Shown: positions 45,433 through 62,955, numbered from the stretch's first letter. The stretch: 64,000 bases of DNA from a virus (IMGVR_UViG_3300037400_003675:276-64275); one strand, 5' to 3'. The notes: a model not told the origin generated them from the letters alone. Numbers and translations are program-made.

Positions 45433-48400
45433 ATGGCAGACGACAGATATTTGCAGAACCGGCAGCTCGCGTATGACCTTCTCAAGAGGGAGGGCTATAC
45501 CGACATAGGCGACAGCGCCGAGGATTTGTTCAGGGACAGGGAGAACAGCAGGATAGCATACGACCTTCTCTCCAAGGCGGGGTATTCCGACTTGGGCAAG
45601 GACTACGACGAGTTCGCCTCCAAGCTGTACGCCCCCGAGGTCCCTGCAGGGGAAGCCCCCGATCCGCTCGCCACGAGTTCCTTCTCCCAGGCACCGCGCA
45701 GCACGCGCAGGTGGATGCGCGGAGAAGAGAGGAAGGCGCAGGAGCAGGAGCAGGAGCAGGAGCCCGAGCCGCAGGAACCCTCTGCACCCGAGACCAGCTC
45801 GTTCGCGCAGGCTCCCGAGAGCACGAAGGACTACCTCGAAGCCGCGGAACGCAACCCCTATGTGGGGCGGGATGCCGCCACTCTCGCCGCCATGGCCGGA
45901 GAGGTGGACAGGCAGGATGCGGAGTTCGCCAAGGAATACGAGGCACGCAACGCATCGCTGACTACCGATATCGACGAGATGTCACCCACCCTCAACGCGG
46001 AGGATGTCGCCTGGCTCAAGGAAAATGAAGGGCGATATAAAGCCTATAAGGATAAAAAGGCGCTCATAGCGAACGCCCTCACGCAGACCTCGGAGTTCCA
46101 GGGCGCACTCGCAGGGGCGAAGGATGCGGGCAATGCCGCACGCGAACGCCTCAGCGCTCCCGCCACCGCAGGCGGACGCACCGTCTATAACGACAGGGAA
46201 CTGAAGAACTGGGAGACCGTGCGCCGCCTCTCCGACATCACCGAGAGGGAATCCAAGCTGGGTGATAAGGCGGAGCTGAAGGGCGTGCCCGAGGACATAG
46301 CCGTGGCGGTCAGGCAGTTCGCAGGCGCAGCCGGAAGGATGGTGGACGAGAACTCCCTCACCTTCGGCCTGGTCAACGCCCTCGCCAAGAGCAATGTCCG
46401 CGAAGTGGGCGACAAGGCCGGCGCGATCATCACCGACGTGCTGGATTCCTTCGGAGTGAAGGACGGAGCCGTCCCGGAGGACAGGCAGGAGGAAGTGTCC
46501 GCCGCGATAGCGGAGGCCCTGCAGAACGGACTCACCGACGGAGAGAAGGAAGTCCTCAAGGCATTTGACAGATACTCCTACATAAACGGCGTGAAAGCCG
46601 CATCCGCGTCCACCTACGCCAAGGCCGGACAGGCAGCGGAGCAGAGCGCCGAGTTCATGCTGGGATTCATACTCACGGGAGGATTGGAGAAGATGGGTGC
46701 CCGCGCAGCCAGGAACATCGCCACCAAGGCCACGAGGCAGTGGCTGAGCAGGGGCGCTGCGGCAAGGGGCGCTGCGAACATAGCGGCAGACTTGCCCGGT
46801 GCCATGGCGAAACTCACGGCAAGGGGCATCAAGCCCAACCTCGCTGCGAAGATGCTCGCGGATGCGGGTGTGGCTGCGGAGCGCACCGCGCTGCTCTTCC
46901 CCCGCACCGCGGAGGCATACGCAGACAACCTCATCCAGACGACAGGGGAATACAAGGACGAACACGGGCGGCTGAAGTTCGACAGGAGCCGTGCCAACGC
47001 GGCCCTCAACACCGCGCTCACGCAGTACATAGAATACTGGTCCGAGGGATTCGGCGAGTATTTCGGAGCCGGGGAGAAAGCCCTGTTCAAGTCCGTGACG
47101 AAGAACGCACCCGCAAGTGCCATAGGCAAGACGCTCTCGGACTACCGGGGCAGCATAGGCAGGTTCCTCGACCAAGGCAAGTTCAACGGTATGTTCAACG
47201 AAATGCTGGAAGAGGTCGTGGGTTCGGTGTTCAACTCCACCGCAGGCTGGCTCTCCAAAGACCGCCTCGGCGACAAGGAGGCGATGAAGGAGTTCTTCGC
47301 AGGGGACAACCTCGCGACGCTCTTCCTCTCGTTCCTGCCCATGTCGGCGCTCAGCGCAAGGACGAACATAAAGGCGTATAACGCAATGGTCAACCGCTAC
47401 GACAAGGCGGTGGACACCCTCAAGCCGATGGTGGAGAGCGGAGCCGTGTCCCAGGAGGACCTCGATTCCCTCGTGGGCGACATCCGCAACAGCACTCCCG
47501 AACATATCAAGGACCGCGTCGTGGAGATAGCGGACAAGGCGAGGAAGGCAGCCGGAGGAAAGCTGCCGGACAACTTCGCGCAGTCGCTGCTGGGTTATGT
47601 CGAGGGCAACCTCTCGATGAACATGGAATCCGACCTCTGGGACCAGTCCTCGGAGAAGAGAAGGGTGGTGGATGCCTATTCCGGCACCTACTCCTTCCCC
47701 GACCTCGGCAGCGCGTGGGATATCGTCTCCGCGGAGGATGCCGCCAGGCAGGCCGCACTTGAGGCGGGGCTGGACGAGGATGACCTTGAGAAAGATCCGT
47801 TCCGTCTCGCGCAGGAAGCTGCCGTGATCGAACGGCAGGGCAACGCCGAGGCAGCGGAAGTCCTTACGGAATACGCGCAGGTCAAGGCTGCGGCCCAGGG
47901 CTTGCGTGACGGATACCGCAAGGAGACGGAGGACATGACAGACGGATTCTCCCGGACGGTGCGGGATGCTTCCCTCAAGAACGGCGCGGTCATCGTCGCC
48001 GAGTACGAGGGCGCTCCGGTCATAGTGCTCACGGACGATGCGTCGGTGGATGCTGACGGCTCCGTGTCGGCAGGCGGTGCGGACGGCCTCGTGCGCATTG
48101 CTCCGACATCTCCCTCGGCAGACGAACTCATAGTGAAGTCCGGCACCCTGCGGAACGGCTCTGCGGTGAACGCGGAGAACTTCATCGCGCAGTCCGCCGC
48201 ATCGTTCGCGGACCAGCGGCAGGTAGCCTTCGAGCAGGCGGTGGGTACCATCAGCCCCTCGGGGAAAGCGGCAGTCATCAACGGACTTACAGGGCAGACC
48301 ATACTCATACAGGACGAGACCGGCAGTGTCTCCCCCGTGACCATAGTGAACACCGACGGACGTGGCGGGGTGACCGTCAGGGACGAGGGCAAGGGCGGCA

Positions 48401-51400
48401 GTATGAATGTCGTGTCCGCGGAGACTCTCTACGACATGGCGCAGAAAGACCAGGACGGAAACGTCCAGATCTACTCCGCCCAGGGAGCGGAGCAGCCCGC
48501 ACAGGAGGCCCAGCCTCAGCCTGCGGAAGCACCCGCACCTGCGGAGCAGCAGCCCACGGCCGACCTCGGGGATTATGTCGGGACGGAATTGTCACTACTT
48601 GTCAATAATTCGCCGGTACAGGCGTATGTGACGGAGGTGGGTGACGGGCGCGTGTACTTCGAGTACGAGGATGTGGACGGCAACGGCAGGGCCAGCTCGA
48701 TGACGGAGCAGGCTTTCCTCGCGGCCCTTCAGGGGGCGCAGGGCGGACAGCAGGAGGAGCAGGAGGCCCAGCCGCAGGCTCCGGCGGAAGAGGCGCAGCA
48801 GGGCGTCCTCCCCAGGACGAAGGACGGAGAGGTGGACATGGCCAATATGTTCAACGTGGACAAGGAGACCTTCGCGCAGAGGATTCCCGAACTCGTGGAT
48901 TATATGAACTCCGTGCTGGGAGAATACGCGCTGAAGGAAGTGCAGAAAGCATACACCGCAACAGGGGAGGCGGTGAAGAAGATACAGGAGAGGATAGACA
49001 AGAACTCCGACCTTGCGAAAGCCCCCAGGCTCTACAAGGAACTCGCGGAGGAAAAGCAGAAGAAGGAGAATTACGGTGCGCTCATCATTGCGATGCGCCC
49101 GGAGAGGGGGCAGGCCCAGCCGGCAGCGACAGCAGCGGCGGAGCCCCAGGCTCCCGAGGCACCTGTGGACGGGAATGTGCCCGACATCTCCGACGACACT
49201 CCGGAGGCAGCGCAGGAGCGCGGATACTTCATACAGAACGGAAACCGCGTGGACCGCGCAGCGGAGGATGCCGTGGCGGCCACCGGTGCGGACACGAAGA
49301 TATCCTTCACCAAGACCGAGGTGGTGGATGCCAAGTACGGATTGGTGGATGCCAAGCGCATCATCCCTTCCCATGTGGCGGATCAGGAGAACCCCCTGCA
49401 TTTCTTCGCGAAGAACTGGCAGCCGAAGAACCGCAACCGCACGGACAGCGCCGTGGCCATACAGCAGATGGCGAACGGCATCCGTCCGGAAGAGATAACC
49501 GTGGGTGCCACCGCATACGGCGGTGCGCCTATCGTGAACAGCCGCGGAGAGGTCATCCAGGGCAACGGACGCAGCGAGGCGCTGCGCAGGGCATACGCCC
49601 AGGACACCGCAGCCGGATACAAGCAGTGGCTCGCGGAGCACGCGGAGGACTTCGGTCTCACCAAGGAGCAGGTCGAGGGAATGGACAGCCCTATCCTCGT
49701 CCGCGTCCTCTCGGTGGATGACGCACGCGCGGAGGAGCTCGGGAAGAGGGAGCAGAAAGACCTTGAGTCGGGCGGCGACCAGACCTTCTCCGGCAAGGGC
49801 CTCGCGAAGAAGATAGGCGACAGGCTGGAAGAGTTCCTGAATATCCTCTACGGGGGTGATCTCGGCGAGGATGCCACGCTCTCGGACTACATCAACGCGA
49901 ACGGCCAGCTCGCACTCAACTGGCTGAACCGCAACGGATACATAAACGACACCGAGCTGCAAAATGCTCTGGAGACCACAAGGAGCGGAGAAGTCCGCTT
50001 TACAGATGCGTCAGTGGCCGCTTTCCGTGAGCTGAGCCTTGAACCTTTGTTCCAAAGTGGGACAGAAAAAGTGAGGGCGGGCTATGAAAAGTTGCCGAAT
50101 ATTGTTAAATTGGCGCTGCAAAGGAATGTCGCGCTGCTGTCGAACCTTGAGGGAGTGATACCTGACATCCAGGCAGCACTGTCCTACTACCACGACTTCG
50201 AGACCGCGGACCCGGCATTCCAGAAAGCCAAGACCACCGAAGAGGCGTGGAAAGCAATCGAGGACTGGATGAACAATGTCCCTCTCGGCAGCGACAAGAC
50301 CGAGGGCGACCTGCATCCGAACATCGTGGCAAGGCGTTTCGCAGCCATCTTCAAGGGCGCGAAGAAAGCCAAGGCCCTGACCGACCTCTTCCGCAACATA
50401 GCCGCCGCAATGAACGGAGAGGGCGGGCTGTTCGGGGAGAACCCCGAGGCCGTTGACCGCATCGGCGCATACACGCAGACCAATGTAATTTCCGAACAAG
50501 AAGCAAACACTATACAAAATGGACAAGAAGGTAACACTGAACGAGGCTCTGACGCAGTCCCTGGAGACAATGGCGAGCAAGGGGGACAAGTGGGCGAAGG
50601 AAGTCCTGCAAGCGGAGTCGAATCACCTGCAGAAAACGCAGGAGATAGCGGACAGGCAGCTGAAGGAGCTGAAAGCGCAGAAGAAGGCGCGGTAGCCGCC
50701 GGAACGGAGGAATCCGAACCTGCGGCAACCGAAGAGGTCTCCGAGACTACGGAACCTGCAGAGCCCGCAGAGCCTGCGGCTCCCGCCACCGAGGGCGGTT
50801 ACGGAGAATCCAACACCGTCGTAACGAAAGACCAGTACGAGGAACTGAAGCGCAGGATGCGCGAGAAACTCGGACAGCTCAACGCGGGATTCGACCCGGA
50901 GGTATTCTCCATCGGCGTGCAGATGGCCGCCTATCACATAGAGGCTGGCGCAAGGAAGTTCATCGACTTCGCCAAGAGGATGATAAACGACCTCGGCGAC
51001 GCGATCCGTCCCTACCTCAAGGCCATCTACAACGGAGCGCGTGACCTTCCCGGAATGGAAGAGTTCAGGGAAGAGATGGACAGCGCCGAGACCGTCAGCG
51101 GAATCGAAGTAGCAGATATCAACATAAACGACAACGATAATGGAAAAGAAGACACTACTGATTTACAGCAGGGAGGGCAGCGACCTGGAGCTGTACCTGG
51201 TGATACCTCAGAAGGAGCTGGAGGAGAGACCGGAACTCCTGGCACCGACGGGGATAACGCCGGAGATAATTCAGGAAATGCAGCGCCGGGCGGGAATCAA
51301 GGAAGTGACGCCGAAGAAGGAGCTGGAGGCGAACAGGGCACTCTTTGGGACGACGGAGAACCGAGTGGAACTTCAGGAAATCGTGAAGGACACGGAGGAA

Positions 51401-54400
51401 GAACCGATGTCGGAAAAGGTTCTGGACGAAAGACTCCGACAGGTAGAGGAGGAAGGTCTGGAGATACTGGAACCGGAGTGGTATCCGAGGAACCCGTCGG
51501 TGTGGGACGAGACACCGGTGGACGCACAGATGCAATAGACCCCGAAGCCGCTGCTACCGAGGCCGAGCAGAAAGCCTACGAGCAGGAAAAGAAAGCCATC
51601 CAGAACGAGACGGATGCTGAAAAGCTGAAGGCCCGCAAGGACGAGCTGAAAGCCGGCATATCCGCCATCACCGACAAGCACGATCTCTCCAAAGCCAGGA
51701 TGAGCGGCCAGCTCAGGGCTGTCCTTGAGAAGTTGCGCGACCTGTTCTCCAAGAGCGCCGACAAATCCGAGAGGCTCACCCAGGAGAAAGTACCATACGA
51801 ATCCGTATCCGACCCTACGGGAGAACACGCAATTGGCAGTGTGGTCCCTTCGGGCTCGGCGGACGCCATGCGCAACGCAATCCTCCGTATGGAGACGGAA
51901 GAGAAGGGGGGCGCGGCTGACTTCGTAAGGGGGCTGGAGGGATATAAGTCCCTCGACGAGATGTTCACCGGTGACGGGAAGGACATCGGTCTCTCCTCCG
52001 AGCAGGTGGATTCCGTCGCTCTCGCGCTCCATCAGATGCTGGGCGGGCGTATGTTCATCGTCGGAGATATGACCGGCGTGGGTAAGGGCCGCCAGGGTGC
52101 GGCCATCATCCGCTGGGCTTTGAGGGAGAAGAAGAAGATTCTCTTCGTCACGGAGAAGCCCGACCTGTTCAGCGATATGTATCAGGATCTCGTGGATATC
52201 GGCAGTACCGACCACGTTCCTTTCGTGGTTAACAATGTCCCCATCGTTGATAAGGGCAAGAGCGAGGAAGAGGGGAACGTCATACTGAAAGCCCCGGGTA
52301 AATCCGTCGCGAGCGCTCTCTATGGCTCCGAATCCGATGCCTTGCCGAAGGTCAAGTGGAGCGGGGCATTCAAGGGCAAGCAGTACAATGTCGTGATGAT
52401 GACCTACAGCCAGGCCCAGTCCACATTGCCCAGCGCGAAAAAGAAACTCGACTGGGTGAAGCAGTACGCGAAGGATGCCATAGTCATCTGCGACGAATCC
52501 CACAACGCCAGCGGCGAATCCAGGCGCGGAGGTTATTTCCGCGACATAGTGCAGAACGCACAGGGCGTGACATTTATGTCCGCGACCTTCGCCAAGCGCC
52601 CGGACAATATGGTACTCTATACCCTCCGCTCATCCTTGCGAGATGCACAGATGACGCAGGAGGACATGATTGAGAGTATCCAGAAGTACGGCGTCCCCAT
52701 GCAGGAAATCCTCGCCGAAGGTCTGTTCAGGACCGGAGAGATGGTGCGTCGCGAGAGGGACTTCTCGGACGTGAAGATACACTGGGATGAACCCAAGGAT
52801 GTATTCACCGAAGAGGAAATCAAGCAGTCCAGGGATACCTACGACAAGACGACGGACATCGTCAACTCAATCATCTCGATGCAGAGGCAGATGATGGACC
52901 CCGTCATCAAGAAGATGAACAAGGAGCAGTTCGAGGAGGCTAACAAGGCAGCGCGGAAGAGGCTTGAAACCTCAAACGAGGGAACGAAAGTAACCATCCG
53001 CGAGTACACTTACACCCCCTATGCCAGCCAGGTATCGAACGTGGCGAGCCTTATGTTCTATGCGATAAAGGCCCGCAAGGCTGCGGAAATGGCCATCAAC
53101 CAGATCAAGGAGGGCAAGAAGCCCATCATCGCGGTGGACAACACTCTTGAAAGCTATATCAAGGACATCGAGGGAGAAGTACCTTCCGCAGACTTTGCCT
53201 TCATCCTCAACCGCGGTCTGGAGAAGAGCCTGAAGTACCGGCTCAAGAGCACCGTCAAGTGGATTAACCCGGAGACGCATACGGAAGAGACCGTCAAGGA
53301 GGACAGTTCCGTTGCCGAACTCGGCTCGTTCGAGAAGATAATGGGCAACGGGTATTCCAATATCATACGCCAGAGCATCCAGAACTACAGCCAGGACAAG
53401 GAGGTCCTGCCCCTGATGCTCTCCCCTATCGACTACATCAAGTCGGAGATAGAGAAGGCCGGCTATAGGTGCGGCGAGATAACCGGACGCAGCTGGTCGC
53501 TCAGGCAGAAAGTGGACGGCAATTGGGAGCGGGTGCCGATGAAGATAGACAAGACTTCGGAAATCACCCATTTCAACGGCGGCAGCGCAGCAGCCCCTCT
53601 CGACGAGAGCGAGGTTAATAACGCCGTCATCCTCAACACGGCGGGTGCTACGGGTATATCCCTTCACGCCAGCCGGCGTTTCGGCGACCAGCGCAAGAGG
53701 ACGATGATTATCCTCCAGCCGGCAAAGGACGTCAATGTAGAAGTTCAGATACGAGGCCGCGGAGACCGTACCGGACAGGTGGCACGATGCGAATACTTCT
53801 ACATTATGAGCCCTATCCCTGCGGAGAAGAAGATAATAATGATGCTCAAGCAGAAACTCGCATCCCTGGATGCCAATGCCGTAGGTACGGAGAAGGTGTC
53901 GTCCAACAAGGTGGATGCGAACGATATGGACAACAAGTACGGCGATGAGGTAGCCCGCCAGTTCCTTATCGACCACCCCGAAGTCAACCAGAATCTCGAT
54001 AAACCCCTCGAGAAGAAGAACGGTGAGTACGAGCATCGCGACGGCCTGCTCTATGCGTTGCTCAAGGGGGCGCAGCGAATGACTTGCAAGAGGCAGGAGC
54101 TGATCCTCACGGAGCTGGAGAGCGCGTATGTCGAGCAGATAGACTACCTCAACCAGAACGGCATCAACGACCTCGCCACCACCACGATGAACCTCAACGC
54201 GACCACCGTGGACCAGGCCATATTCATCAAGGGCAAGGACAACGAGTCAATGTCGGTGTTCGCCCACGATACCAATATGGAAAGGGTTGAGGTGGATGTG
54301 CTCAAGAAGCCCCTCCGCTCCCCCGAAATCTACGCAAGGATGAGGAAACTCGGTGCTCTCACGGAAGATGGGAAGATTGACCCTCTCTATGGCACCAACA

Positions 54401-57400
54401 TATATGAGGCATCTTCCAAATACCGGGATGAAGTGTTGCGTGACAAGGAGAAGAAGAACTTCGAGGCTCAGGAGCAGTTGGTGGAGGCCCTTAAAGTTGC
54501 CACGCCCAAGACCGATGACCAGACCGAAGAAGATTACGACAGGGCCATCAGGAACGATCCCAGCTACAGGGAGCTCGTTAGTACGAATATGGACGAGTAC
54601 AACCGTCTTGATATGGACTTGTCAACGCAGGTGGGCCGTGTCGAGAGGGCTGGAGAGTACCTCAAGCCCGGTATGCCGGTACTCGTTCCCCTTACCGATG
54701 ACCTCAACGGGCAGAAGCGCTATGGCCGTTTCATCGCTTTCAAGACCGCGAAGGATGGCAAGCCGAAGAGTGTCAGGGCGGTATTCGCCGTGACCGACGC
54801 CCGCGCCGTCATCGAGATTCCCGTGGTCTCCAAATATGACATCATCACTTGGATAGTGAACAATGTCTATGGAACCATCGGACTCGGCTCCGACTTGAGG
54901 GAGATAGGCGGCCCGACATACGACAAGAGCATCACCGACGAAACCCGCCGTACGGCAAGGGATGAGTGGTGGGACAAGAAGGTCCCCAAGCAGACGACGA
55001 GGCAGATCCGTTATATGATTACCGGGAACATCCTCCAGGCTTGCGGAAAGCTCGGAGAGTACAAGGGCACCATCACCACCTTCACCCGTAAAGACACGGA
55101 TACCGGGGAGGTGACCGTGGACAGGGGTATGTTGCTCGCCGAGGACTTCGACCCGGAGAACTTCAAGATACGCAGCACAGTCACCAAGGATGATGTGTGG
55201 AACGGATACAACGGCATCTATGACGACAAGACGAACATAGAGGTCCGCCGTGACGGAGACGTGATGGTAGTGCAATATATGCGCCCCTTTAGGAGCCGGG
55301 AGAATCTCGCCAAGAACCCTCTCATGCTCGACGAGGACCTGAAGCCCCTGTTGGTGGACAATACCTTCATCGCCTGGACAAAGGATGCGATAAGGGCTAC
55401 CGTGACGGAAGAGAATGTCGAGGCCGTACTCGACCACCTCTACCGCAACTACGGATTCACCAAGGAGACACTCTTCATCATGCCTGACAGCACGGAAAGG
55501 GTGGACGCCATAGTCTATACCGACAAGCCATACGAGGAGGTTCTGAAAGAGTTCCACGACAAGTATGGAAATAACCTTGACCAATGGGATATAGAGCGCC
55601 AGCTCAAGCAGATGCTTGACCAGTACAAGATGGACGTGAACAACGAGGACCTCAAGAAGCAGATCCGCGATTTTGTCCAGGCCCGTCAGGCATACCTGCG
55701 CAAGAAAGCCGCGAAGAATGACTCCATAAGGATGGCCTGGGATGTCCTCATAAAAGATGAGGAAATCGCCCAGGCGACAAGCAAGGAGCGCAGGGACTCC
55801 CTGTATGCAAAGCGCGAGGCCGAGAAGGAGGAACTCGCGGTGCGAGGGGTTCACGGAAACCTCTTGCACTTTGAGGCAGGCGAAGTCCCGTTCGATGTCG
55901 TCGAAGAGAACTTCAACAAGCTGAACAAGGACAAGGGCAATGCCGAGATAGCGAAGAAGGTGTTCCCTCTTGTCAAGAAACTCGGTCTTACCACCATCTT
56001 CAACGAGAAAACCCCTAACAATGTCGGGGGACATACTGCGGGACAGGAGCTGACTTACAACTGGAAGTACATGAACTCCGATTGGATTACCGACCAGATG
56101 AAAGCGGACACGTTCCTCCACGAAGTAATCCATACTGTGACCGCCTATGCGAAAGGCTGCGTGGAATATGGGTACGAGCACCTCATATCCGAGGAGATGC
56201 TCGACATAGTCAACCAGCTGGACGGCATCTGGAGGCTCATAAAGTACAATCAGCTCTTCCAGCACAGTACCGGAGATGGCAATGCCTATACCGACTATGG
56301 TACTACGGATTGGTATGAGATGATGGCCGAGGCCGGCAGTAACGAAGAGTTCCGCGCCGATCTGCGGAAGATGACTCTCGGCATCAAGGTGCTTTCGGGC
56401 GTGATGTCCTTTACGAACGTCACCGACAGGGATGATTACACCGGCAAGACACAGAATGCGGAGGAAGCCGTGCTGGAGAGGTTGGATGCACTCATCGAGG
56501 GGTTCAACCAGCACGCCTTCACGGAGTATTTCCGCGGTACCGGTTTCGGTGCGAGGTCATACAGCGAGCTCAACGAGGCCGACAACAAGGCACAGGAGTT
56601 CAAGGACAGGAAGGAGGCGCTCCATAGGGCGAAGAAGATAGGGAAGAAAGCGGAGATGGTCCTCAGCCTGCATACCTTCATCGACGACATGACCGACACG
56701 GAGCTGCTCCGCACCAATTACCTCCTGCCAGGAAACAAGGACCTTGAGGCCGAGATAAGGAAACGGAACCTCGACCCCCATCCTGAAATGCGTATGCGTG
56801 ACGGAGAAGCGGGAGCGACTGAGGAAGCAGCCAGCCCCGCTCCGGAAGAAAATACCGCCGCCAGCCGTATCACTGACGGGGAACGTAGGGGCGTGGCCAG
56901 AAGGCTGGACAGTATGTCCGAGATCCTGGGAGTTCCCATCAGGCAGATAAGCCGCGACGAGATGCCCGCAGGCCATAAGAGGGGCAAGGGTTATTACGAC
57001 ACCGCAACCGGCGAAGTGGCAATCTGCATGGATAACGTGTCCGACCTCCGCGACGCAATGGCAACGGTGTTCCACGAGACCGTAGGACACCTGGGGCTGC
57101 GCAGGCTCTTCGGGGACAAGTTCAACGAGGCAATGGTTGGCATCTATTCCGCGCTTGACAGCAAGGGCAGGGCGTGGGTATCATCCTATATGCTCAATCA
57201 CGGACTGCAGCCAGGAGACGCAGGCATCGTCCGGGGAATGGAGGAATACCTCGCATCCCTCGCCGAGAGCGGAGACTTCAGGAGCAGTGTCTGGGATGAC
57301 ATAAAGAGAGCCATCGGCAGGATAGTGGATGCCATCTTCGGCACGGACGGATTCCTCTTCACCGACAGGGAACTGAACTATATCCTCCGCGCATCCTATG

Positions 57401-60400
57401 AGCATCTGAAGAATCCCGACTACCTCTCCACCATGGAGGGTTGGGCCTGGGATACGCACCTCAAGCGCGAACTTGGAATCAACGAGACCGACCCGAACAG
57501 GCCCACCGATCCCGATGGGCCGGGGACCGGGAGGCTCTTCCGCGACGGAGATTCGGGAGTGGCGAAGGTGGACTACGAATCGGAGATGCGCGACTGGCGC
57601 AACACTCTCGTGATGGAGCACCAGAACGCAGACCTCCCCGTCAAGATAGGGATGGAGAAGATAATGCAGGAGGTAGGCAAGGACAAGATTGAAGAGAACG
57701 AGGACTACCTGACACGGCACAACCTCGCCAGCAGCCGGGCGGAGAGCCAGGCTCACGAGTTCGAGCTGTTCCGTTTCACTCCCCTCTTGGAGCAGCTGCG
57801 CAAGGTGCAGGCCAAGGTGCCCGTGGAGACACGCGGAGCAGCCGGCAGGGAGGAATCATATGAGAAGATCCTCGACTATCTCTACGCGGTATCCGGCATT
57901 GAACGAAACGGCTACAAGAACAACGAGATAGAGCAGCGTAAGCAGGAGGCGCTCGATGCTCTGGGAGAGGCTGCAGCGAAAGAACGCCTTGAACTGATGA
58001 AGAACGGGACGGAAGCACAGCTTGCGAAGTTCGAGCAGGCCCTTGCGGAGAAGAAGGCCGAGATAGAATCCCGCTACGAGGGAATGAAGAGGGACTGGTC
58101 CGGTCTCACTTCGCTGGTAGGCCGTCCGTCCGACGAGTGGCGCGAGGCAGAGGATGACGCAAAGGCGCTCATTGCCCGGTTCCGCAGCGAGGTGGGTGAC
58201 GATGCCGCCCTTGAGGAGCTGTGGGAGCGCATACGCGCCTGCACCGATTACAGCCTTGAACACGCATACAGGCACGGACTCCTGACGAGGGAGGAATACG
58301 AGCGCCTGCACGGCACGGAATCGGAGCCGAGGATGTGGGAGTACTACCTCCCCTTGAGGGGCTTCGATGAAGAGACCGCCGAGGACGTGTACGGCTATGA
58401 CAGCATGGTGCATCCCAATATCGGGTCCGTCGTGGTGAAGAAGATGAACGGCCGCTGGACGAAAGCGGACAACCCCATAGCGAACATACTCAACATAGCG
58501 GAGTCGGAGATAGTCCAGGGCAACGACAACTGGGCCCGTCAGGCTCTCTACCGTTTCGTGCTGAACGCCGGGGAGAACTCCCTGCTCACGCAGACCGATG
58601 CCTGGTACGAGAAGGACCCCGCTACCGGCCAATGGGCGCTCGCGCAGCCCCGCCCGGATGAAACCCTTGAGAGGTTCGAGGCGAGGATGAGGGCGATGCG
58701 TGAGAACATACAGCCCGACGGCACCAACGGCACTTCCCTCGCGAAGAAGGGGCGCAGGGGACTGAGACTCGACAGGATCATGGCCAACAAGGCACACGCA
58801 AACGAACACCTCATACGGCTGAAGGTCGGAGGAATGGACAAGATGATATGGGTGAACGGAGACCCCGCCATAGCCAAGGCCGTGGCAGGGCTGGGGCGTG
58901 CAAAGACGATGCGCCTCATACGCAGGGCATCACGCGCCCTCTCCAACCTCTTCACCACCTATTCCCTTGACTTCACCGCGAGAAACCTCATAAGGGATAC
59001 CATCTATTCGCAGCTTGCGCTCATAACGAAGGAGGACAGGCCGTACCGCCATCAGTACAGGAAGAACTGGATAGCCAACTTCGGCTACGGCACCTTCGCC
59101 TATCCTATGGTGAAGCTGATGGCAGAGTGGGAGAGCGGCAAACTCCAGACCAAGCCCAACCCCACCCCCAAGGAGCAGATGTTCATGGACTTCATGCGCG
59201 ACGGAGGGCAGACCGGTTACACCATCATCAACTCCGTCTCCGAGATAAAGAAGAGCATAGAGCGCTCGATGCGCCGTGCCGGAGAAGATGTGGGCAAGGT
59301 GCGCATACCTATCCTCGGGCACTATGCGAAGTTCGTCAAGACACTGAACGAGGGATTCGAGCTGCTGACGAGGTTCACGGCATACGAGACTTCCCGCAAT
59401 ATGGGCCGCAGCGGACAGCGCTCGGCAGCGGATGCGAAGGAGATTTCGGTGAACTTCAACCGCAAGGGGCTGCAGTCCGGCAAGGACTTCCTCGGAGGTA
59501 CCGCGGCCTACCTGGGTGCCACGCACTACTTCTACAATGCGGGCGTGCAGGGCTTTGACAACTTCCTGCATCTGTTCAAGGTCAATCCCGTGAAAGTGTC
59601 GGCCGCTGCCGGAGGTCTCGTCCTTCTCGGCGTCCTCACCCCGATGCTCAATGCGGCTCTCGCAGGGCTCGCGGCAGGCATGGGCGACGATGACGGAGAC
59701 GAGAGGAAGAAGCACGACTGGTATTGGAACCTTCCCGAATGGGTAAGGCGCAACAGCATCGTGCTCGGTACCGGCACGGGTTATCTTGCCATACCTCTGG
59801 CGGTGGAACTCCGTGCGTTCTATGGCCTGGGAGACATAGCGGCATCACTGCTGTACCACAAGCATCCCGCACGCAACGGATTCACCATAGGGCTTGATGC
59901 GATCAACACCGCAGCCGGGATACTCCCCGTCAACCCGATAGAGGGATATACCGCCAACGGCAACATAAGCGACGCAGTCCTCCGTACGGTCACTCCCGAT
60001 GCGACGATGTTCATAGTGGACATCGCCACCAACAGGGACTACACCGGCAGGCCGCTGAAGAAGGTCAATCCGTTCAGTGGTACGGTGCCTCAGTCGCAGT
60101 CCGCATATGCCAGCACACCGAAAGCGCTCGTGGAGGCTTGTCAGCACCTCGCCCAGACGACGGGCATCGACATAGCTCCCGGCGTGCTGAGGGACGTGTT
60201 CCGTAACCTCGGGGGCGGATTCTACAGGGTCGCGGAAGATGTGGCGAAGCTGGTTGCAGCGGACGAGGAGCGCCCGAGAAGGTGGGATGACATTCCTTTC
60301 CTCAGCGGATTCACGGGGCATATCGACAAGGACCGCAGCAGCTCCTTCGAGACCTCCGCGCTGTACGACTATCAGAGGCTGTCCGAAGATGTGGTCAAGC

Positions 60401-60924
60401 GGTTGAACATAGCCGCCGGCACGAAGGACATCACCTCGTCGATGGCCTATGACCACCCGGAGAATCTCCCCAAGGAGGCGAGGGTGCAGAAGATCCTCGA
60501 AGGTGAGGACTATGTGCTCGGCAAGATGTTCCGCGACGGAATGAACAACGAGTACAAGATGAAGGTGCGCCAGCGGGATGCCAAGGACGGCTCCTACTCC
60601 AAGGGCGACCTCTACAAGTCCCGCGAGATAGAGCGCAAGGGCGTCGATCAGCTGAAGAAGGACTGGAAGGAACTCCTTGAGCAGCTCGTGGCGATGCCCG
60701 GCAAGACGCAGGAAGAGAAGGATGCGAAGGCCGCGTTCTCCCTGGAGGTGCAGGATGCCTGGCACAAGTACCACAGCGCCGAATCCGACCTCGTGGACGC
60801 GCTCATGGAAGAGGAATACAACCACGTCCAGGAGAAACGCAGGAACGGAATCCCCTACGAGCCGAAGCAGCCTGCCACGGAAAAGGTGTACGAAAGGGCA
60901 AGGGAAATAGTAAAAAACAAATAA
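45433..60924 (+). CDS. 5163-aa polyvalent (DarB-like) virion protein: ParB/ddrB-like domain, strawberry-notch-type SF2 helicase, two zincin motifs, LPD38-like C-terminus
   Basis: GAPIV...VIQGNGR (ParB-like), GDMTGVGKGRQ, DESH, SATFAKRP, HEVIH, HETVGH and SVNFNRKG...LPEW motifs. Confidence 0.85.
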   Translation: MADDRYLQNRQLAYDLLKREGYTDIGDSAEDLFRDRENSRIAYDLLSKAGYSDLGKDYDEFASKLYAPEVPAGEAPDPLATSSFSQAPRSTRRWMRGEERKAQEQEQEQEPEPQEPSAPETSSFAQAPESTKDYLEAAERNPYVGRDAATLAAMAGEVDRQDAEFAKEYEARNASLTTDIDEMSPTLNAEDVAWLKENEGRYKAYKDKKALIANALTQTSEFQGALAGAKDAGNAARERLSAPATAGGRTVYNDRELKNWETVRRLSDITERESKLGDKAELKGVPEDIAVAVRQFAGAAGRMVDENSLTFGLVNALAKSNVREVGDKAGAIITDVLDSFGVKDGAVPEDRQEEVSAAIAEALQNGLTDGEKEVLKAFDRYSYINGVKAASASTYAKAGQAAEQSAEFMLGFILTGGLEKMGARAARNIATKATRQWLSRGAAARGAANIAADLPGAMAKLTARGIKPNLAAKMLADAGVAAERTALLFPRTAEAYADNLIQTTGEYKDEHGRLKFDRSRANAALNTALTQYIEYWSEGFGEYFGAGEKALFKSVTKNAPASAIGKTLSDYRGSIGRFLDQGKFNGMFNEMLEEVVGSVFNSTAGWLSKDRLGDKEAMKEFFAGDNLATLFLSFLPMSALSARTNIKAYNAMVNRYDKAVDTLKPMVESGAVSQEDLDSLVGDIRNSTPEHIKDRVVEIADKARKAAGGKLPDNFAQSLLGYVEGNLSMNMESDLWDQSSEKRRVVDAYSGTYSFPDLGSAWDIVSAEDAARQAALEAGLDEDDLEKDPFRLAQEAAVIERQGNAEAAEVLTEYAQVKAAAQGLRDGYRKETEDMTDGFSRTVRDASLKNGAVIVAEYEGAPVIVLTDDASVDADGSVSAGGADGLVRIAPTSPSADELIVKSGTLRNGSAVNAENFIAQSAASFADQRQVAFEQAVGTISPSGKAAVINGLTGQTILIQDETGSVSPVTIVNTDGRGGVTVRDEGKGGSMNVVSAETLYDMAQKDQDGNVQIYSAQGAEQPAQEAQPQPAEAPAPAEQQPTADLGDYVGTELSLLVNNSPVQAYVTEVGDGRVYFEYEDVDGNGRASSMTEQAFLAALQGAQGGQQEEQEAQPQAPAEEAQQGVLPRTKDGEVDMANMFNVDKETFAQRIPELVDYMNSVLGEYALKEVQKAYTATGEAVKKIQERIDKNSDLAKAPRLYKELAEEKQKKENYGALIIAMRPERGQAQPAATAAAEPQAPEAPVDGNVPDISDDTPEAAQERGYFIQNGNRVDRAAEDAVAATGADTKISFTKTEVVDAKYGLVDAKRIIPSHVADQENPLHFFAKNWQPKNRNRTDSAVAIQQMANGIRPEEITVGATAYGGAPIVNSRGEVIQGNGRSEALRRAYAQDTAAGYKQWLAEHAEDFGLTKEQVEGMDSPILVRVLSVDDARAEELGKREQKDLESGGDQTFSGKGLAKKIGDRLEEFLNILYGGDLGEDATLSDYINANGQLALNWLNRNGYINDTELQNALETTRSGEVRFTDASVAAFRELSLEPLFQSGTEKVRAGYEKLPNIVKLALQRNVALLSNLEGVIPDIQAALSYYHDFETADPAFQKAKTTEEAWKAIEDWMNNVPLGSDKTEGDLHPNIVARRFAAIFKGAKKAKALTDLFRNIAAAMNGEGGLFGENPEAVDRIGAYTQTNVISEQEANTIQNGQEGNTERGSDAVPGDNGEQGGQVGEGSPASGVESPAENAGDSGQAAEGAESAEEGAVAAGTEESEPAATEEVSETTEPAEPAEPAAPATEGGYGESNTVVTKDQYEELKRRMREKLGQLNAGFDPEVFSIGVQMAAYHIEAGARKFIDFAKRMINDLGDAIRPYLKAIYNGARDLPGMEEFREEMDSAETVSGIEVADININDNDNGKEDTTDLQQGGQRPGAVPGDTSEGAGGETGTPGTDGDNAGDNSGNAAPGGNQGSDAEEGAGGEQGTLWDDGEPSGTSGNREGHGGRTDVGKGSGRKTPTGRGGRSGDTGTGVVSEEPVGVGRDTGGRTDAIDPEAAATEAEQKAYEQEKKAIQNETDAEKLKARKDELKAGISAITDKHDLSKARMSGQLRAVLEKLRDLFSKSADKSERLTQEKVPYESVSDPTGEHAIGSVVPSGSADAMRNAILRMETEEKGGAADFVRGLEGYKSLDEMFTGDGKDIGLSSEQVDSVALALHQMLGGRMFIVGDMTGVGKGRQGAAIIRWALREKKKILFVTEKPDLFSDMYQDLVDIGSTDHVPFVVNNVPIVDKGKSEEEGNVILKAPGKSVASALYGSESDALPKVKWSGAFKGKQYNVVMMTYSQAQSTLPSAKKKLDWVKQYAKDAIVICDESHNASGESRRGGYFRDIVQNAQGVTFMSATFAKRPDNMVLYTLRSSLRDAQMTQEDMIESIQKYGVPMQEILAEGLFRTGEMVRRERDFSDVKIHWDEPKDVFTEEEIKQSRDTYDKTTDIVNSIISMQRQMMDPVIKKMNKEQFEEANKAARKRLETSNEGTKVTIREYTYTPYASQVSNVASLMFYAIKARKAAEMAINQIKEGKKPIIAVDNTLESYIKDIEGEVPSADFAFILNRGLEKSLKYRLKSTVKWINPETHTEETVKEDSSVAELGSFEKIMGNGYSNIIRQSIQNYSQDKEVLPLMLSPIDYIKSEIEKAGYRCGEITGRSWSLRQKVDGNWERVPMKIDKTSEITHFNGGSAAAPLDESEVNNAVILNTAGATGISLHASRRFGDQRKRTMIILQPAKDVNVEVQIRGRGDRTGQVARCEYFYIMSPIPAEKKIIMMLKQKLASLDANAVGTEKVSSNKVDANDMDNKYGDEVARQFLIDHPEVNQNLDKPLEKKNGEYEHRDGLLYALLKGAQRMTCKRQELILTELESAYVEQIDYLNQNGINDLATTTMNLNATTVDQAIFIKGKDNESMSVFAHDTNMERVEVDVLKKPLRSPEIYARMRKLGALTEDGKIDPLYGTNIYEASSKYRDEVLRDKEKKNFEAQEQLVEALKVATPKTDDQTEEDYDRAIRNDPSYRELVSTNMDEYNRLDMDLSTQVGRVERAGEYLKPGMPVLVPLTDDLNGQKRYGRFIAFKTAKDGKPKSVRAVFAVTDARAVIEIPVVSKYDIITWIVNNVYGTIGLGSDLREIGGPTYDKSITDETRRTARDEWWDKKVPKQTTRQIRYMITGNILQACGKLGEYKGTITTFTRKDTDTGEVTVDRGMLLAEDFDPENFKIRSTVTKDDVWNGYNGIYDDKTNIEVRRDGDVMVVQYMRPFRSRENLAKNPLMLDEDLKPLLVDNTFIAWTKDAIRATVTEENVEAVLDHLYRNYGFTKETLFIMPDSTERVDAIVYTDKPYEEVLKEFHDKYGNNLDQWDIERQLKQMLDQYKMDVNNEDLKKQIRDFVQARQAYLRKKAAKNDSIRMAWDVLIKDEEIAQATSKERRDSLYAKREAEKEELAVRGVHGNLLHFEAGEVPFDVVEENFNKLNKDKGNAEIAKKVFPLVKKLGLTTIFNEKTPNNVGGHTAGQELTYNWKYMNSDWITDQMKADTFLHEVIHTVTAYAKGCVEYGYEHLISEEMLDIVNQLDGIWRLIKYNQLFQHSTGDGNAYTDYGTTDWYEMMAEAGSNEEFRADLRKMTLGIKVLSGVMSFTNVTDRDDYTGKTQNAEEAVLERLDALIEGFNQHAFTEYFRGTGFGARSYSELNEADNKAQEFKDRKEALHRAKKIGKKAEMVLSLHTFIDDMTDTELLRTNYLLPGNKDLEAEIRKRNLDPHPEMRMRDGEAGATEEAASPAPEENTAASRITDGERRGVARRLDSMSEILGVPIRQISRDEMPAGHKRGKGYYDTATGEVAICMDNVSDLRDAMATVFHETVGHLGLRRLFGDKFNEAMVGIYSALDSKGRAWVSSYMLNHGLQPGDAGIVRGMEEYLASLAESGDFRSSVWDDIKRAIGRIVDAIFGTDGFLFTDRELNYILRASYEHLKNPDYLSTMEGWAWDTHLKRELGINETDPNRPTDPDGPGTGRLFRDGDSGVAKVDYESEMRDWRNTLVMEHQNADLPVKIGMEKIMQEVGKDKIEENEDYLTRHNLASSRAESQAHEFELFRFTPLLEQLRKVQAKVPVETRGAAGREESYEKILDYLYAVSGIERNGYKNNEIEQRKQEALDALGEAAAKERLELMKNGTEAQLAKFEQALAEKKAEIESRYEGMKRDWSGLTSLVGRPSDEWREAEDDAKALIARFRSEVGDDAALEELWERIRACTDYSLEHAYRHGLLTREEYERLHGTESEPRMWEYYLPLRGFDEETAEDVYGYDSMVHPNIGSVVVKKMNGRWTKADNPIANILNIAESEIVQGNDNWARQALYRFVLNAGENSLLTQTDAWYEKDPATGQWALAQPRPDETLERFEARMRAMRENIQPDGTNGTSLAKKGRRGLRLDRIMANKAHANEHLIRLKVGGMDKMIWVNGDPAIAKAVAGLGRAKTMRLIRRASRALSNLFTTYSLDFTARNLIRDTIYSQLALITKEDRPYRHQYRKNWIANFGYGTFAYPMVKLMAEWESGKLQTKPNPTPKEQMFMDFMRDGGQTGYTIINSVSEIKKSIERSMRRAGEDVGKVRIPILGHYAKFVKTLNEGFELLTRFTAYETSRNMGRSGQRSAADAKEISVNFNRKGLQSGKDFLGGTAAYLGATHYFYNAGVQGFDNFLHLFKVNPVKVSAAAGGLVLLGVLTPMLNAALAGLAAGMGDDDGDERKKHDWYWNLPEWVRRNSIVLGTGTGYLAIPLAVELRAFYGLGDIAASLLYHKHPARNGFTIGLDAINTAAGILPVNPIEGYTANGNISDAVLRTVTPDATMFIVDIATNRDYTGRPLKKVNPFSGTVPQSQSAYASTPKALVEACQHLAQTTGIDIAPGVLRDVFRNLGGGFYRVAEDVAKLVAADEERPRRWDDIPFLSGFTGHIDKDRSSSFETSALYDYQRLSEDVVKRLNIAAGTKDITSSMAYDHPENLPKEARVQKILEGEDYVLGKMFRDGMNNEYKMKVRQRDAKDGSYSKGDLYKSREIERKGVDQLKKDWKELLEQLVAMPGKTQEEKDAKAAFSLEVQDAWHKYHSAESDLVDALMEEEYNHVQEKRRNGIPYEPKQPATEKVYERAREIVKNK
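50519..50695 (+). CDS. Nested +1-frame 58-aa ORF (MDKKVTLNEAL...) inside the giant gene
   Basis: A-rich start context; phage-typical codon usage follows this frame rather than the host ORF frame. Confidence 0.6.
   Translation: MDKKVTLNEALTQSLETMASKGDKWAKEVLQAESNHLQKTQEIADRQLKELKAQKKAR
51140..51538 (+). CDS. Nested +1-frame 132-aa acidic ORF (MEKKTLLIYS...) inside the giant gene
   Basis: A-rich start context; CTG/GAG/AAG codon bias in this frame while the host frame is a G/D/E low-complexity linker. Confidence 0.7.
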   Translation: MEKKTLLIYSREGSDLELYLVIPQKELEERPELLAPTGITPEIIQEMQRRAGIKEVTPKKELEANRALFGTTENRVELQEIVKDTEEEPMSEKVLDERLRQVEEEGLEILEPEWYPRNPSVWDETPVDAQMQ

Positions 60925-60933
60925 TCATGCCAT

Positions 60934-62955
60934 ATGAGAAAAATAACAGATACTGACATAGCCGCCTTGCGGGCGAGGGCCGATAGGACCCCCAGGCCGA
61001 AGAGCAAGGTCGGCATCGACGGTACACAGCAGTTGACCGGCAGCAACTTCGTAGTCACGAAAGCATCATTGGACATCATCACCGAGGCTGGACGGTGCCA
61101 CGATGCGTACGCCGATTTCCGCAAGCAGGCGGACCGCAGCGCCGACTACTACAAGGGGAACCAGTGGGGTGACAAGATAGAGCTGAAGGACAGGTTCGGG
61201 CGCAGGGAGGTAATCACCGAAGAGGAATACATCAAGCGGCAGGGCCGTCCGGCGCTCAAGCAGAACCTCATCCGTCCCATCGTGAGGAACGTGGTGGGGC
61301 AGTTCCGCACCACCCCCTATCAGTCGGTGGTCTATTCGTCCGACGAGGGCGGGCAGCGGGCAGCGGACATGACGAGCGTGAAGCTGAACGACATATTGAG
61401 GTACAACGACGCCACGGAGAGGGATGCGAGGGGATACGAGGGATTCCTCAACACCGGTGCGGTGATAGCCTATACCGGCTACTCGTACGATCCGGAGCTG
61501 GGCCAGCCCATACCTTTCTTCAGGCATATCGACTACCACCGCTACTTCCAGAACCCCGATGCCACGGACGTGGCGGGGAAGGACGTGTCCTTCTGCGGCG
61601 ACTTCGTTGACCTGCCCTTGGGCGAGGTCAAGAGCCTGTACGCACACAATCCCGCACAGGAGCAGGCGCTGGAGAACATCTATACGCACGAGACGCACAC
61701 CATGCCCACCGGGTACAGGGCGTTCGTGGTCCGCGACCCCGCTGCGGACAGCATCATCGGCTCCGCGTCCGACGGCAGGTGTAGGGTTATCCGCGTGTGC
61801 CGCCTGGAGGGTGCGTGGGACCTCGCCGTGCACGACTACTCCGATGCGTCCTTCGAGGTGTATTCATCCCGCGAGTTCCCCGGCAAGGAGGCCGAGGTGC
61901 GGAACGAGGTGGAACGCAGGAAGAAGATTGCGGATGAGATAGGCGTGGATTATGAAGATCCTGCCAACCATCTGAAGATAGTCTATGAGAGGAAGTATGT
62001 CCGTCGCTGGATGTACTACCACCTCTCCCCCTGGGGGCATATTCTTTGGCAGGCCGAGAATCCCTTCCAGCACAACAGCCACTGCTATGTGGCGAAGTTC
62101 TATCCTCTCTTCCAGGGCCAGGTCTATGGCATGACCTACGACCTCATAGACCAGCAGAGGATGGTCAACCGTATGGTCATCAACCTTGACTTCGCCATGG
62201 CCGCTTCGCAGCAGGGCGTGCTCCTCGTGGACGAGAACTCGATATCCGATGACTTCGACCTTGAGGACATCGCCGAAGAGTGGACCAAGTACCGCGGCGT
62301 CATCAAGATAAAGATGAAGGACGGAGCGATGATACCCCAGCAGCTCGCCGGGCATCAGGTGAACATCGGCCAGTTCGAGATGATCAACCTGATGATGAAG
62401 ATGATGATGGACATCTCCGGCGTTCAGGGAGCGATGCAGGGCAAGGCTCCCACCGCAGGCACTCCCGCATCCCTCTACAACCAGGAGGTGAACAACTCGC
62501 AGATAAACGTGCTGGACTATGTGGAGGCGTACGGGTGGTTCCTTGAGCAGAGGGACTACAAACTCATACAGATAATCCAGCAGTTCTGCCCCGACGGCTA
62601 CTCCCCCGCTCCCGAAGGGGCGAGCGAGGAGGCGAAGCACTATGTCGCGGCCGAGGTGCGGAAATACAAACTCCGCAACCAGATACGCAAGAGCGTGGAT
62701 ACCGCCGTGGTGAGACTCTACAACGAGCGGCTCATGGCCAACCTCCTGATGAACGGAGCGGCGACCATCGAGCAGTATCAGGCGAGCGGTGCCAAGCCCT
62801 TCGGAGACGACCTTCTCGCCAAGCTGCAGCAGGCATCCTCGCAGCTCCAGGCCGGGCAGGGCGTGAGCCAGCAGCAGTTAGCCGACATCCAGGCGTCGCT
62901 CCCCCAGGTCAGTCCCGAAAGGATGGCAGCGGCAGCCCAGTTCATGAACAGATAA
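60934..62955 (+). CDS. Portal protein (P22-like)
   Basis: 673 aa; YYKGNQW, NLIRPIVRNVVG and LIDQQRMVNR motifs; Q-rich C-terminal barrel. Confidence 0.88.
   Translation: MRKITDTDIAALRARADRTPRPKSKVGIDGTQQLTGSNFVVTKASLDIITEAGRCHDAYADFRKQADRSADYYKGNQWGDKIELKDRFGRREVITEEEYIKRQGRPALKQNLIRPIVRNVVGQFRTTPYQSVVYSSDEGGQRAADMTSVKLNDILRYNDATERDARGYEGFLNTGAVIAYTGYSYDPELGQPIPFFRHIDYHRYFQNPDATDVAGKDVSFCGDFVDLPLGEVKSLYAHNPAQEQALENIYTHETHTMPTGYRAFVVRDPAADSIIGSASDGRCRVIRVCRLEGAWDLAVHDYSDASFEVYSSREFPGKEAEVRNEVERRKKIADEIGVDYEDPANHLKIVYERKYVRRWMYYHLSPWGHILWQAENPFQHNSHCYVAKFYPLFQGQVYGMTYDLIDQQRMVNRMVINLDFAMAASQQGVLLVDENSISDDFDLEDIAEEWTKYRGVIKIKMKDGAMIPQQLAGHQVNIGQFEMINLMMKMMMDISGVQGAMQGKAPTAGTPASLYNQEVNNSQINVLDYVEAYGWFLEQRDYKLIQIIQQFCPDGYSPAPEGASEEAKHYVAAEVRKYKLRNQIRKSVDTAVVRLYNERLMANLLMNGAATIEQYQASGAKPFGDDLLAKLQQASSQLQAGQGVSQQQLADIQASLPQVSPERMAAAAQFMNR

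Follow-up and report, generated by a model that had tools for sequence, protein, structure and literature searches.

A putative overprinted gene in the +1 frame of a polyvalent-protein gene from a cattle-gut Bacteroidales phage

Introduction

Can a low-complexity spacer of a giant phage gene encode, in a second reading frame, a protein of its own? The question is raised by positions 51140-51538 of a 64,000-nucleotide stretch of viral DNA (hereafter the window), which covers almost the whole of a virus record that is complete at 64,275 bp and has direct terminal repeats. Here a complete open reading frame (ORF) of 132 amino acids (aa), with its own ATG start and TAG stop, lies on the plus strand wholly inside a larger ORF of 5163 aa (45433-60924, +), at an offset of +1. 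The source is a cattle-gut Bacteroidales phage, whose DNA is found in cattle and goat gut sequencing runs. Long same-strand overlapping genes are thought to be rare in phages and bacteria, and gene callers drop them. The comparative evidence set out below makes it very probable that 51140-51538 is a real, unannotated gene overprinted on the giant gene.

Results

Codon usage and start site of the nested ORF

Read in the giant frame, the stretch (51139-51537, +) is a low-complexity spacer rich in G, D, E, T and S. It joins an almost invariant, conserved 81-aa domain lying directly upstream (50818-51060, +) to a downstream module (51538-53997, +) made of a coiled-coil-like stretch followed by a Strawberry-notch-type superfamily 2 (SF2) helicase. 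Over 51140-51538, the G+C content at third codon positions (GC3) is 0.33 in the giant frame, against 0.75 for the gene as a whole, and 0.72 in the +1 frame. The giant-frame third positions of this stretch are 0.41 A and 0.27 T and its first positions are rich in G (0.58), while positions 1 and 2 of the +1 reading come close to the usual pattern of the gene. When the 15.5-kb gene was scanned by codon log-likelihood, the +1 frame scored above frame 0 in two places only, 51133-51500 and 50458-50680. The 132-aa product would have a pI of 4.45 and a net charge of -15; part of this acidity arises because glycine codons of the host frame are read as glutamate in +1.

The putative initiation region (51110-51159, +) is A/T-rich and essentially unstructured, and has no Shine-Dalgarno (SD) sequence. 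A +1-frame stop, TAA at 51125-51127, stands four codons ahead of the ATG. Positions -25 to -1 are 68% A+T and 52% A, and only 0.6% of the 25-mers of the giant gene reach 68%. From -30 to +20 the minimum free energy (MFE) is -0.3 kcal/mol, in the top 0.3% of a gene that averages -11.8 +/- 4.3, and 14 of the 25 least-structured 50-nt windows of the giant gene fall at this ATG and that of a second nested ORF described below. The A/T-rich patch exists because the giant frame uses A/T-ending codons for Ile, Asn and Asp. The other genes of the window likewise have A-rich, G-poor leaders without an SD sequence, and SD-independent initiation is typical of Bacteroidota; signals of the host type are thus present at this internal start, at a level found in the top 0.3-0.6% of the gene. 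The leaders of the nested starts in relatives are also A/T-rich (AT 0.64-0.80). A promoter scan of the giant gene found no sigma-70-like site and no TAnnTTTG motif of the Bacteroidota promoter type, and we therefore assume that the nested gene has no promoter of its own.

These results bear out the sequence-only reading that first drew attention to the locus. Its coordinates, length and frame for the ORF were exact, and its description of a G/D/E linker with A/T-ending codons in the giant frame, overlain by phage-typical codons in +1, is matched by the GC3 values and by the codon scan in all frames. The A-rich, SD-less, Bacteroidota-style start and the acidic product that it described are both recovered. 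It had also placed the ORF just before the helicase, where related proteins would often carry a methyltransferase: the conserved start of the helicase module lies 78 codons past the end of the ORF, and several relatives do carry an NPPF-motif methyltransferase at this position.

The nested ORF is kept in related giant genes

Relatives were fetched through the flanking 81-aa domain, which introduces no bias towards the nested ORF, and comprised 20 viral and 7 genomic loci. The same architecture of 81-aa domain, spacer and helicase occurs in three of them (L001, L002 and L018), and all three have an ATG-started +1 ORF of 116-132 aa in the same place. The giant protein of L001 is 97% identical to that of the window, and that of L002 about 50%. 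A further locus, L033, located through the small protein, shows the same nested layout. In all four lineages an upstream +1 stop lies 1-5 codons ahead of the conserved ATG. The nested proteins of the relatives are 28-31% identical to that of the window and have in common an N-terminus (M-x-K...L.Y.R), a hydrophobic pattern and a C-terminal DETPV.

A metagenome scan for the family returned no contig beyond one already known, and neither 401 Bacteroidales genomes nor four metagenome-assembled genomes (MAGs) with related giant genes gave a match. Among GenBank phages and plasmids, tblastn with four nested proteins found none of them, and blastn with the region gave no match in either collection. 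In the cattle and goat gut runs just one further haplotype turned up, that of L001, so that no polymorphism data are gained.

Where the phage differs from L001 and several cattle-gut runs, its 97-98% relatives, the changes are concentrated in two short patches, 50554-50579 and 51415-51491, each inside one of two spacers. The segment 51140-51414 is identical among them, and an in-frame 9-bp indel occurs at 50758, within a P/E/A-rich repeat.

Selection acts on both frames

We aligned the three translations of the stretch independently for each pair of loci and compared their Smith-Waterman z-scores. For L002-L018 the +1 frame reached 48, against 17 for the giant frame and 17 for +2; for L018-L033 the values were 50, 17 and 16, with identities of 61%, 48% and 46%, respectively. 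The spacer encoded in the giant frame is thus conserved no better than the non-coding +2 frame, and +1 is the best conserved of the three.

A similar picture emerges when differences are counted at each codon position, with the giant protein guiding the alignment. In the flanks, giant-frame positions 1, 2 and 3 differ at about 0.30, about 0.27 and about 0.60 of sites (range for position 3, 0.59-0.65). Inside the ORF the corresponding values are 0.35, 0.31 and 0.28 for L002-L018, 0.39, 0.27 and 0.27 for L018-L033, and 0.44, 0.32 and 0.40 for L002-L033. The drop at position 3 is significant in each pair (Fisher p = 1e-10, 1e-10 and 3e-6, respectively), and the fastest giant-frame position within the ORF becomes position 1, which is position 3 of the nested frame. 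Pairs that include the window are near saturation and uninformative in these counts.

OLGenie-style counts, in which changes are classed as nonsynonymous (N) or synonymous (S) in the host and nested frames in turn, give a nested-frame dNN/dNS of 0.63 (0.44-0.94) and 0.66 (0.44-0.92) in two unsaturated pairs. Together with the suppressed host position 3, these values indicate purifying selection on the alternative frame. The third pair gives 0.85, which is not significant, nor are the three saturated pairs with the window. In the giant frame, dNN/dSN lies between 0.83 and 1.07 and is never significant, so that no residue-level constraint is detected there. However, when the nested protein is held fixed and written with usual codons, the giant frame stays open in only 1.5%, 0.02%, 0% and 1.4% of cases in the four lineages, and the third positions of the nested frame avoid T (0.06 vs 0.11) and are 58% G. 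From this biased codon choice and the low probability of an open frame, it follows that the continuity of the giant frame is also under selection. On these comparative grounds we regard the stretch as truly dual-coding, with residues selected in +1 and openness and linker character in frame 0.

The sequence-only reading had proposed a real nested gene, to be recognised by a +1 ORF and ATG conserved in homologous giant genes and by lower synonymous variation in the giant frame; homologous linkers with +1 stops or without the ATG would have spoken against it. The ORF and its ATG are kept in L001, L002, L018 and L033, and neither defect occurs in any of the four lineages with DNA. Giant-frame position 3 differs at 0.27-0.40 of sites inside the ORF, against 0.59-0.65 in the flanks. 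Its central proposal is therefore supported by conservation and by reduced synonymous variation as well as by the codon scan.

An orphan family with a confidently predicted fold

A profile built from the four members was searched with HMMER against 1.84 billion proteins, and recovered 15 clusters with E values from 3e-49 to 8e-4. Most of the full-length ones have 119-134 aa and the same termini, and all members are acidic (pI 4.05-4.57). Across the same 1.84 billion proteins, the profile found no in-frame copy of the nested domain in any giant protein. Most of the database members lie on contigs shorter than 4 kb, as would be expected if gene callers picked up the nested ORF only where the giant gene is cut short; one member, P0010, comes from a 20-kb contig.

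In one lineage the 120-aa family domain forms the C-terminal part of a longer protein (P0008, 303 aa; P0021, 335 aa). The 180-aa N-terminal domain of P0008 had no Pfam match and corresponded to none of the frames of the giant genes compared, and P0008 was not found in IMG/VR.

For the 132-aa protein, AlphaFold2 with a 13-row alignment gave a model with a mean predicted local distance difference test score (pLDDT) of 82.5 and a predicted template-modelling score (pTM) of 0.71. A beta-hairpin comes first in the model, then three helices, a strand and a long helix, and finally a disordered tail with a conserved WDETPV. No Pfam family matched the protein at E <= 0.01, and TnpV (PF14198), which had been considered as an identity, was rejected at that threshold. 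There was likewise no match in PHROGs, PADLOC or a PDB sequence profile search, and no usable match in the ESM Atlas; Foldseek of the model against PDB and BFVD returned nothing at E <= 0.001.

Alternative explanations

Several points weigh against the view that this is a translated gene, and we take them together here. With the amino acids of the spacer fixed and the usual codons of the gene, 51% of resamplings leave the +1 frame open. The independent lineages fetched through the flank, all of which keep the ORF, start and stop, number only three, and the probability that +1 would be open in all of them by chance is about 0.07. Between the window and its 97% relative L001, five of the seven differences alter the nested protein. 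The selection signal is moderate, and is lost to saturation in every pair that includes the window. The database members are biased to open ORFs, which disqualifies them as a test of maintenance; we used them for the breadth of the family only. The best VIA-align Z of the model is 2.6, unusually low for a compact domain. Finally, the case for translation is a comparative one: the one run labelled as RNA that contains this DNA, a poly-A run, agrees with a DNA run of equal size from the same sample, is no proof of transcription and was not used as such.

Among the alternatives, the one that survives best, improbable as it is, holds that the ORF is the fossil of a once independent gene, or of an older frame, that was swallowed by gene fusion and is now neither expressed nor needed. 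This idea would fit codon usage that is more genome-like in the nested frame, the predominance of nonsynonymous +1 differences in the closest pair and the moderate strength of selection. A dead frame, however, should gather stops and lose its ATG, and the ORF is intact in every lineage down to 26-31% identity. Nor would a fossil lead us to expect dNN/dNS below 1 in two unsaturated pairs, or initiation-site features that are kept by synonymous choice in the giant frame of the relatives as well.

Even less probable is a compositional accident, in which the T-poor G/D/E spacer happens to be open in +1 and nothing is translated. Because T is nearly absent from the second codon position of such spacers, +1 is often open by chance; given the result of the synonymous-resampling null (P = 0.51), we have therefore dropped openness as a main argument. 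The giant gene contains six other same-strand alternative-frame ORFs of at least 100 aa. On the opposite strand, an ORF of 126 aa (51155-51535, -) has nearly the borders of the nested gene, and we attribute it to the T-poor composition, the antisense DNA being poor in A and so having few stops. When the actual spacer codons were shuffled, +1 remained open in only 0.06% of trials, although this second null depends on a handful of codons. An accident also leaves unexplained the fall of giant-frame GC3 from 0.75 to 0.33 and the suppressed change at giant-frame position 3. It is equally hard to reconcile with +1 being the most conserved frame, with an ATG kept just past an upstream +1 stop, with a start at one of the least-structured and most A/T-rich patches, and with a confidently predicted fold.

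Phage structural genes often use frameshifting. Programmed ribosomal frameshifting into the +1 segment, giving a truncated product with a folded 130-aa C-terminal domain, would suit the same-strand +1 geometry and the N-terminal extension of P0008, but is the least probable explanation of all, because the stop 1-5 codons before the ATG in all four lineages hardly leaves room for a shift site, the ATG and SD-less leader are conserved, and the extension matches no frame of the compared giant genes.

The host gene and its setting

The giant gene encodes a phage polyvalent protein, in which several unrelated effector domains and zincin motifs are combined, beside virion genes. Pfam matches include a ddrB-ParB domain (49312-49710, +), AAA_34 (51988-52791, +) and Helicase_C_4 (53473-53967, +), with ResIII also among the matches of the Strawberry-notch-type helicase, and LPD38 (59713-60303, +). 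Two HExxH zincin motifs, HEVIH and HETVGH, occur in the translation, and the portal gene follows directly, at 60934. The giant protein is probably packaged and ejected. Related giant genes were located in MAGs of Alistipes, Prevotella and other Bacteroidales.

Besides the nested starts, two spots of the giant mRNA are exceptionally unstructured, 57643-57707 and 54488-54542. The first contains in-frame ATGs at 57652 and 57664 and may thus hold an internal in-frame start, close to the second zincin motif. At the second, the codon scan gives no coding signal for a +1 ATG at 54515.

Other nested ORFs in the spacers of giant genes

The preceding spacer of the window gene holds a second nested +1 ORF (50519-50695, +) of 58 aa, predicted to be helical. 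Its GC3 is 0.83 in its own frame against 0.28 in the host frame, its leader is unstructured and A-rich, and it is conserved with its ATG in L002/L006 (2771-2947). Host-frame position 3 differs at 0.27 of sites inside the ORF, against 0.54 in the flanks (p = 2e-4), while dNN/dNS is 1.43 and not significant. We consider the case for a real gene here weaker than that for the 132-aa ORF.

Most relatives have, in the corresponding spacer, a +1 ORF of 116-159 aa that is unrelated to that of the window and shows the same GC3 flip. The nested +1 ORFs of the relatives fall into at least five unrelated families, and ten others of them matched no Pfam family at E <= 1. One family of acidic +1 ORFs (121-162 aa) occupies the spacer between the methyltransferase and the helicase, at 4421-4810 in L019, 4454-4825 in L020, 2327-2704 in L021, 5484-5864 in L027 and 4421-4870 in L022. 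The helicase downstream of the L019 ORF is 39% identical to that of the window, and the same helicase is present in the methyltransferase-bearing relatives. This family has 56 database clusters, almost all on short contigs; its AlphaFold2 model (pLDDT 86.5, pTM 0.82) matches no known fold, with a best Z of 3.4. Profile-profile comparison of the two main nested families found no homology between them.

The cleanest nested-gene signal in the set comes from a +1 ORF upstream of the methyltransferase module, at 3884-4261 in L010 and 4881-5252 in L026, an Alistipes MAG. Between these two, differences at giant-frame positions 1, 2 and 3 amount to 0.21, 0.06 and 0.05 inside the ORF against 0.31, 0.26 and 0.44 in the flanks, and dNN/dNS is 0.15 (0.06-0.26). 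The nested sequence of L010 occurs in eight human-gut viral contigs (L010-L017).

A nested +1 ORF of 125 aa, with a GC3 of 0.82 against 0.38 in the host frame, is also found on an Azotobacter bryophylli contig (L031, 4884-5261), where an upstream GGAG stands in place of the A/T-rich leader. Since this is a proteobacterial genome, the phenomenon is not limited to Bacteroidota. GC3 flips also mark +1 ORFs in spacers of L023 (3323-3691), L024 (4121-4600), L009 (4925-5125), L030 (6204-6413) and L007 (4337-4549); those of L009 and L030 are homologous to each other.

Discussion

Our analysis favours a stretch of DNA with two products. The giant frame would give a flexible, sequence-tolerant spacer joining the 81-aa domain to the helicase module, and the +1 frame a distinct acidic protein of 132 aa, in which a small alpha/beta fold is followed by a disordered WDETPV tail. 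This protein would be made from the late mRNA of the giant gene, by internal, SD-independent initiation at the ATG at 51140, at a patch whose A/T-richness and lack of structure would stem from synonymous choice in the giant frame. The case is backed by several independent comparative lines, and it does not stand isolated: most relatives of the giant gene have some +1 ORF in the equivalent spacer.

What could such a protein do? The sequence-only reading had named a chaperone, an inhibitor of the giant protein's enzymes or a DNA mimic, and the strong acidity would suit a mimic or an inhibitor. Together with a conserved motif in the tail and a constant location ahead of the helicase, it hints at a helicase partner or inhibitor, or at a DNA mimic. 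We lean, tentatively, towards a partner of the adjacent helicase module, be it a chaperone, a packaging adaptor or an inhibitor, because unrelated nested ORFs fill the same pre-helicase spacer in relatives. A complex prediction of the 132-aa protein with the first 820 residues of the helicase module scored 0.00, which counts neither for nor against binding. Rather less likely is an independent acidic anti-defence protein or DNA mimic, and some other role altogether has a substantial probability too. Small and strongly acidic, the protein resembles mimics of the Ocr/ArdA type in these respects; similarity to a known DNA mimic was found neither by Pfam, PHROG, PADLOC and PDB sequence searches nor by Foldseek, and the VIA-align search brought up nothing closer than the Z given above.

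The origin of the nested gene can be argued in both directions. By the usual criterion, codon usage that is more genome-like in the nested frame favours the nested reading as the older one. On the other hand, birth of the gene inside the spacer is favoured by the intrinsic openness of +1 in G/D/E spacers (the reverse does not hold), by the orphan character of the families and by the lack of free-standing homologues among the sequences searched. It is tempting to speculate that the spacers of polyvalent proteins systematically harbour hidden genes, which arise or are captured there, and that the 132-aa protein is a helicase partner encoded in cis; we consider this broad scheme possible at best. 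If it were true, nested proteins would travel with the neighbouring enzyme module and could, for instance, silence the helicase until the giant protein is packaged and ejected.

If translated, these ORFs would represent a hidden layer of the phage proteome, inside anti-defence polyvalent proteins. The predicted folds of the two nested proteins modelled match nothing solved, and the system offers a natural test bed for gene birth by overprinting on disordered spacers. Annotation pipelines would do well to screen giant genes for internal GC3 flips.

Among known systems, the Rz/Rz1 pair of phage lambda is a close parallel. Rz1 is embedded in Rz on the same strand, in the +1 frame, and its product is a lipoprotein that pairs with Rz in lysis. 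In each case a small gene, complete with start and stop codons, sits entirely within a larger phage gene, in +1 and on one late mRNA. In the window, however, the host frame encodes a disordered spacer within a multi-enzyme protein of 5163 aa, and the nested product is predicted to be a cytoplasmic acidic protein without a lipobox; a functional pairing is known for Rz/Rz1 only. Embedded phage genes are thus known as a kind, and it is the setting, a spacer of a polyvalent protein, that is undescribed: our literature search found no paper on small +1 genes nested in polyvalent-gene spacers.

Polyvalent proteins have been defined as a multi-domain class found in phages and conjugative elements (Iyer et al. 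2017, PMC5512222). With a ddrB-ParB domain, SF2 helicase, LPD38 and zincin motifs, next to virion genes, the host gene is typical of the class. By contrast, a hidden second reading such as that of the window gene is absent from the family as described: the word 'overlapping' does not appear in that paper, and its one 'reading frame' and two uses of 'nested' refer to neighbouring ORFs and to a hairpin fold. In viral overprinting in general, one member of an overlapping pair is often disordered, and codon usage differs between the frames (PMC8227390). The same principle applies here, in that a low-complexity, disordered frame tolerates the constraints of the other. Two features set the window apart from this pattern. 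It is the large, plainly functional host gene that supplies the disordered reading, and the hidden protein that is folded; and across one gene family, equivalent spacers show this layout repeatedly, although the proteins nested in them are unrelated.

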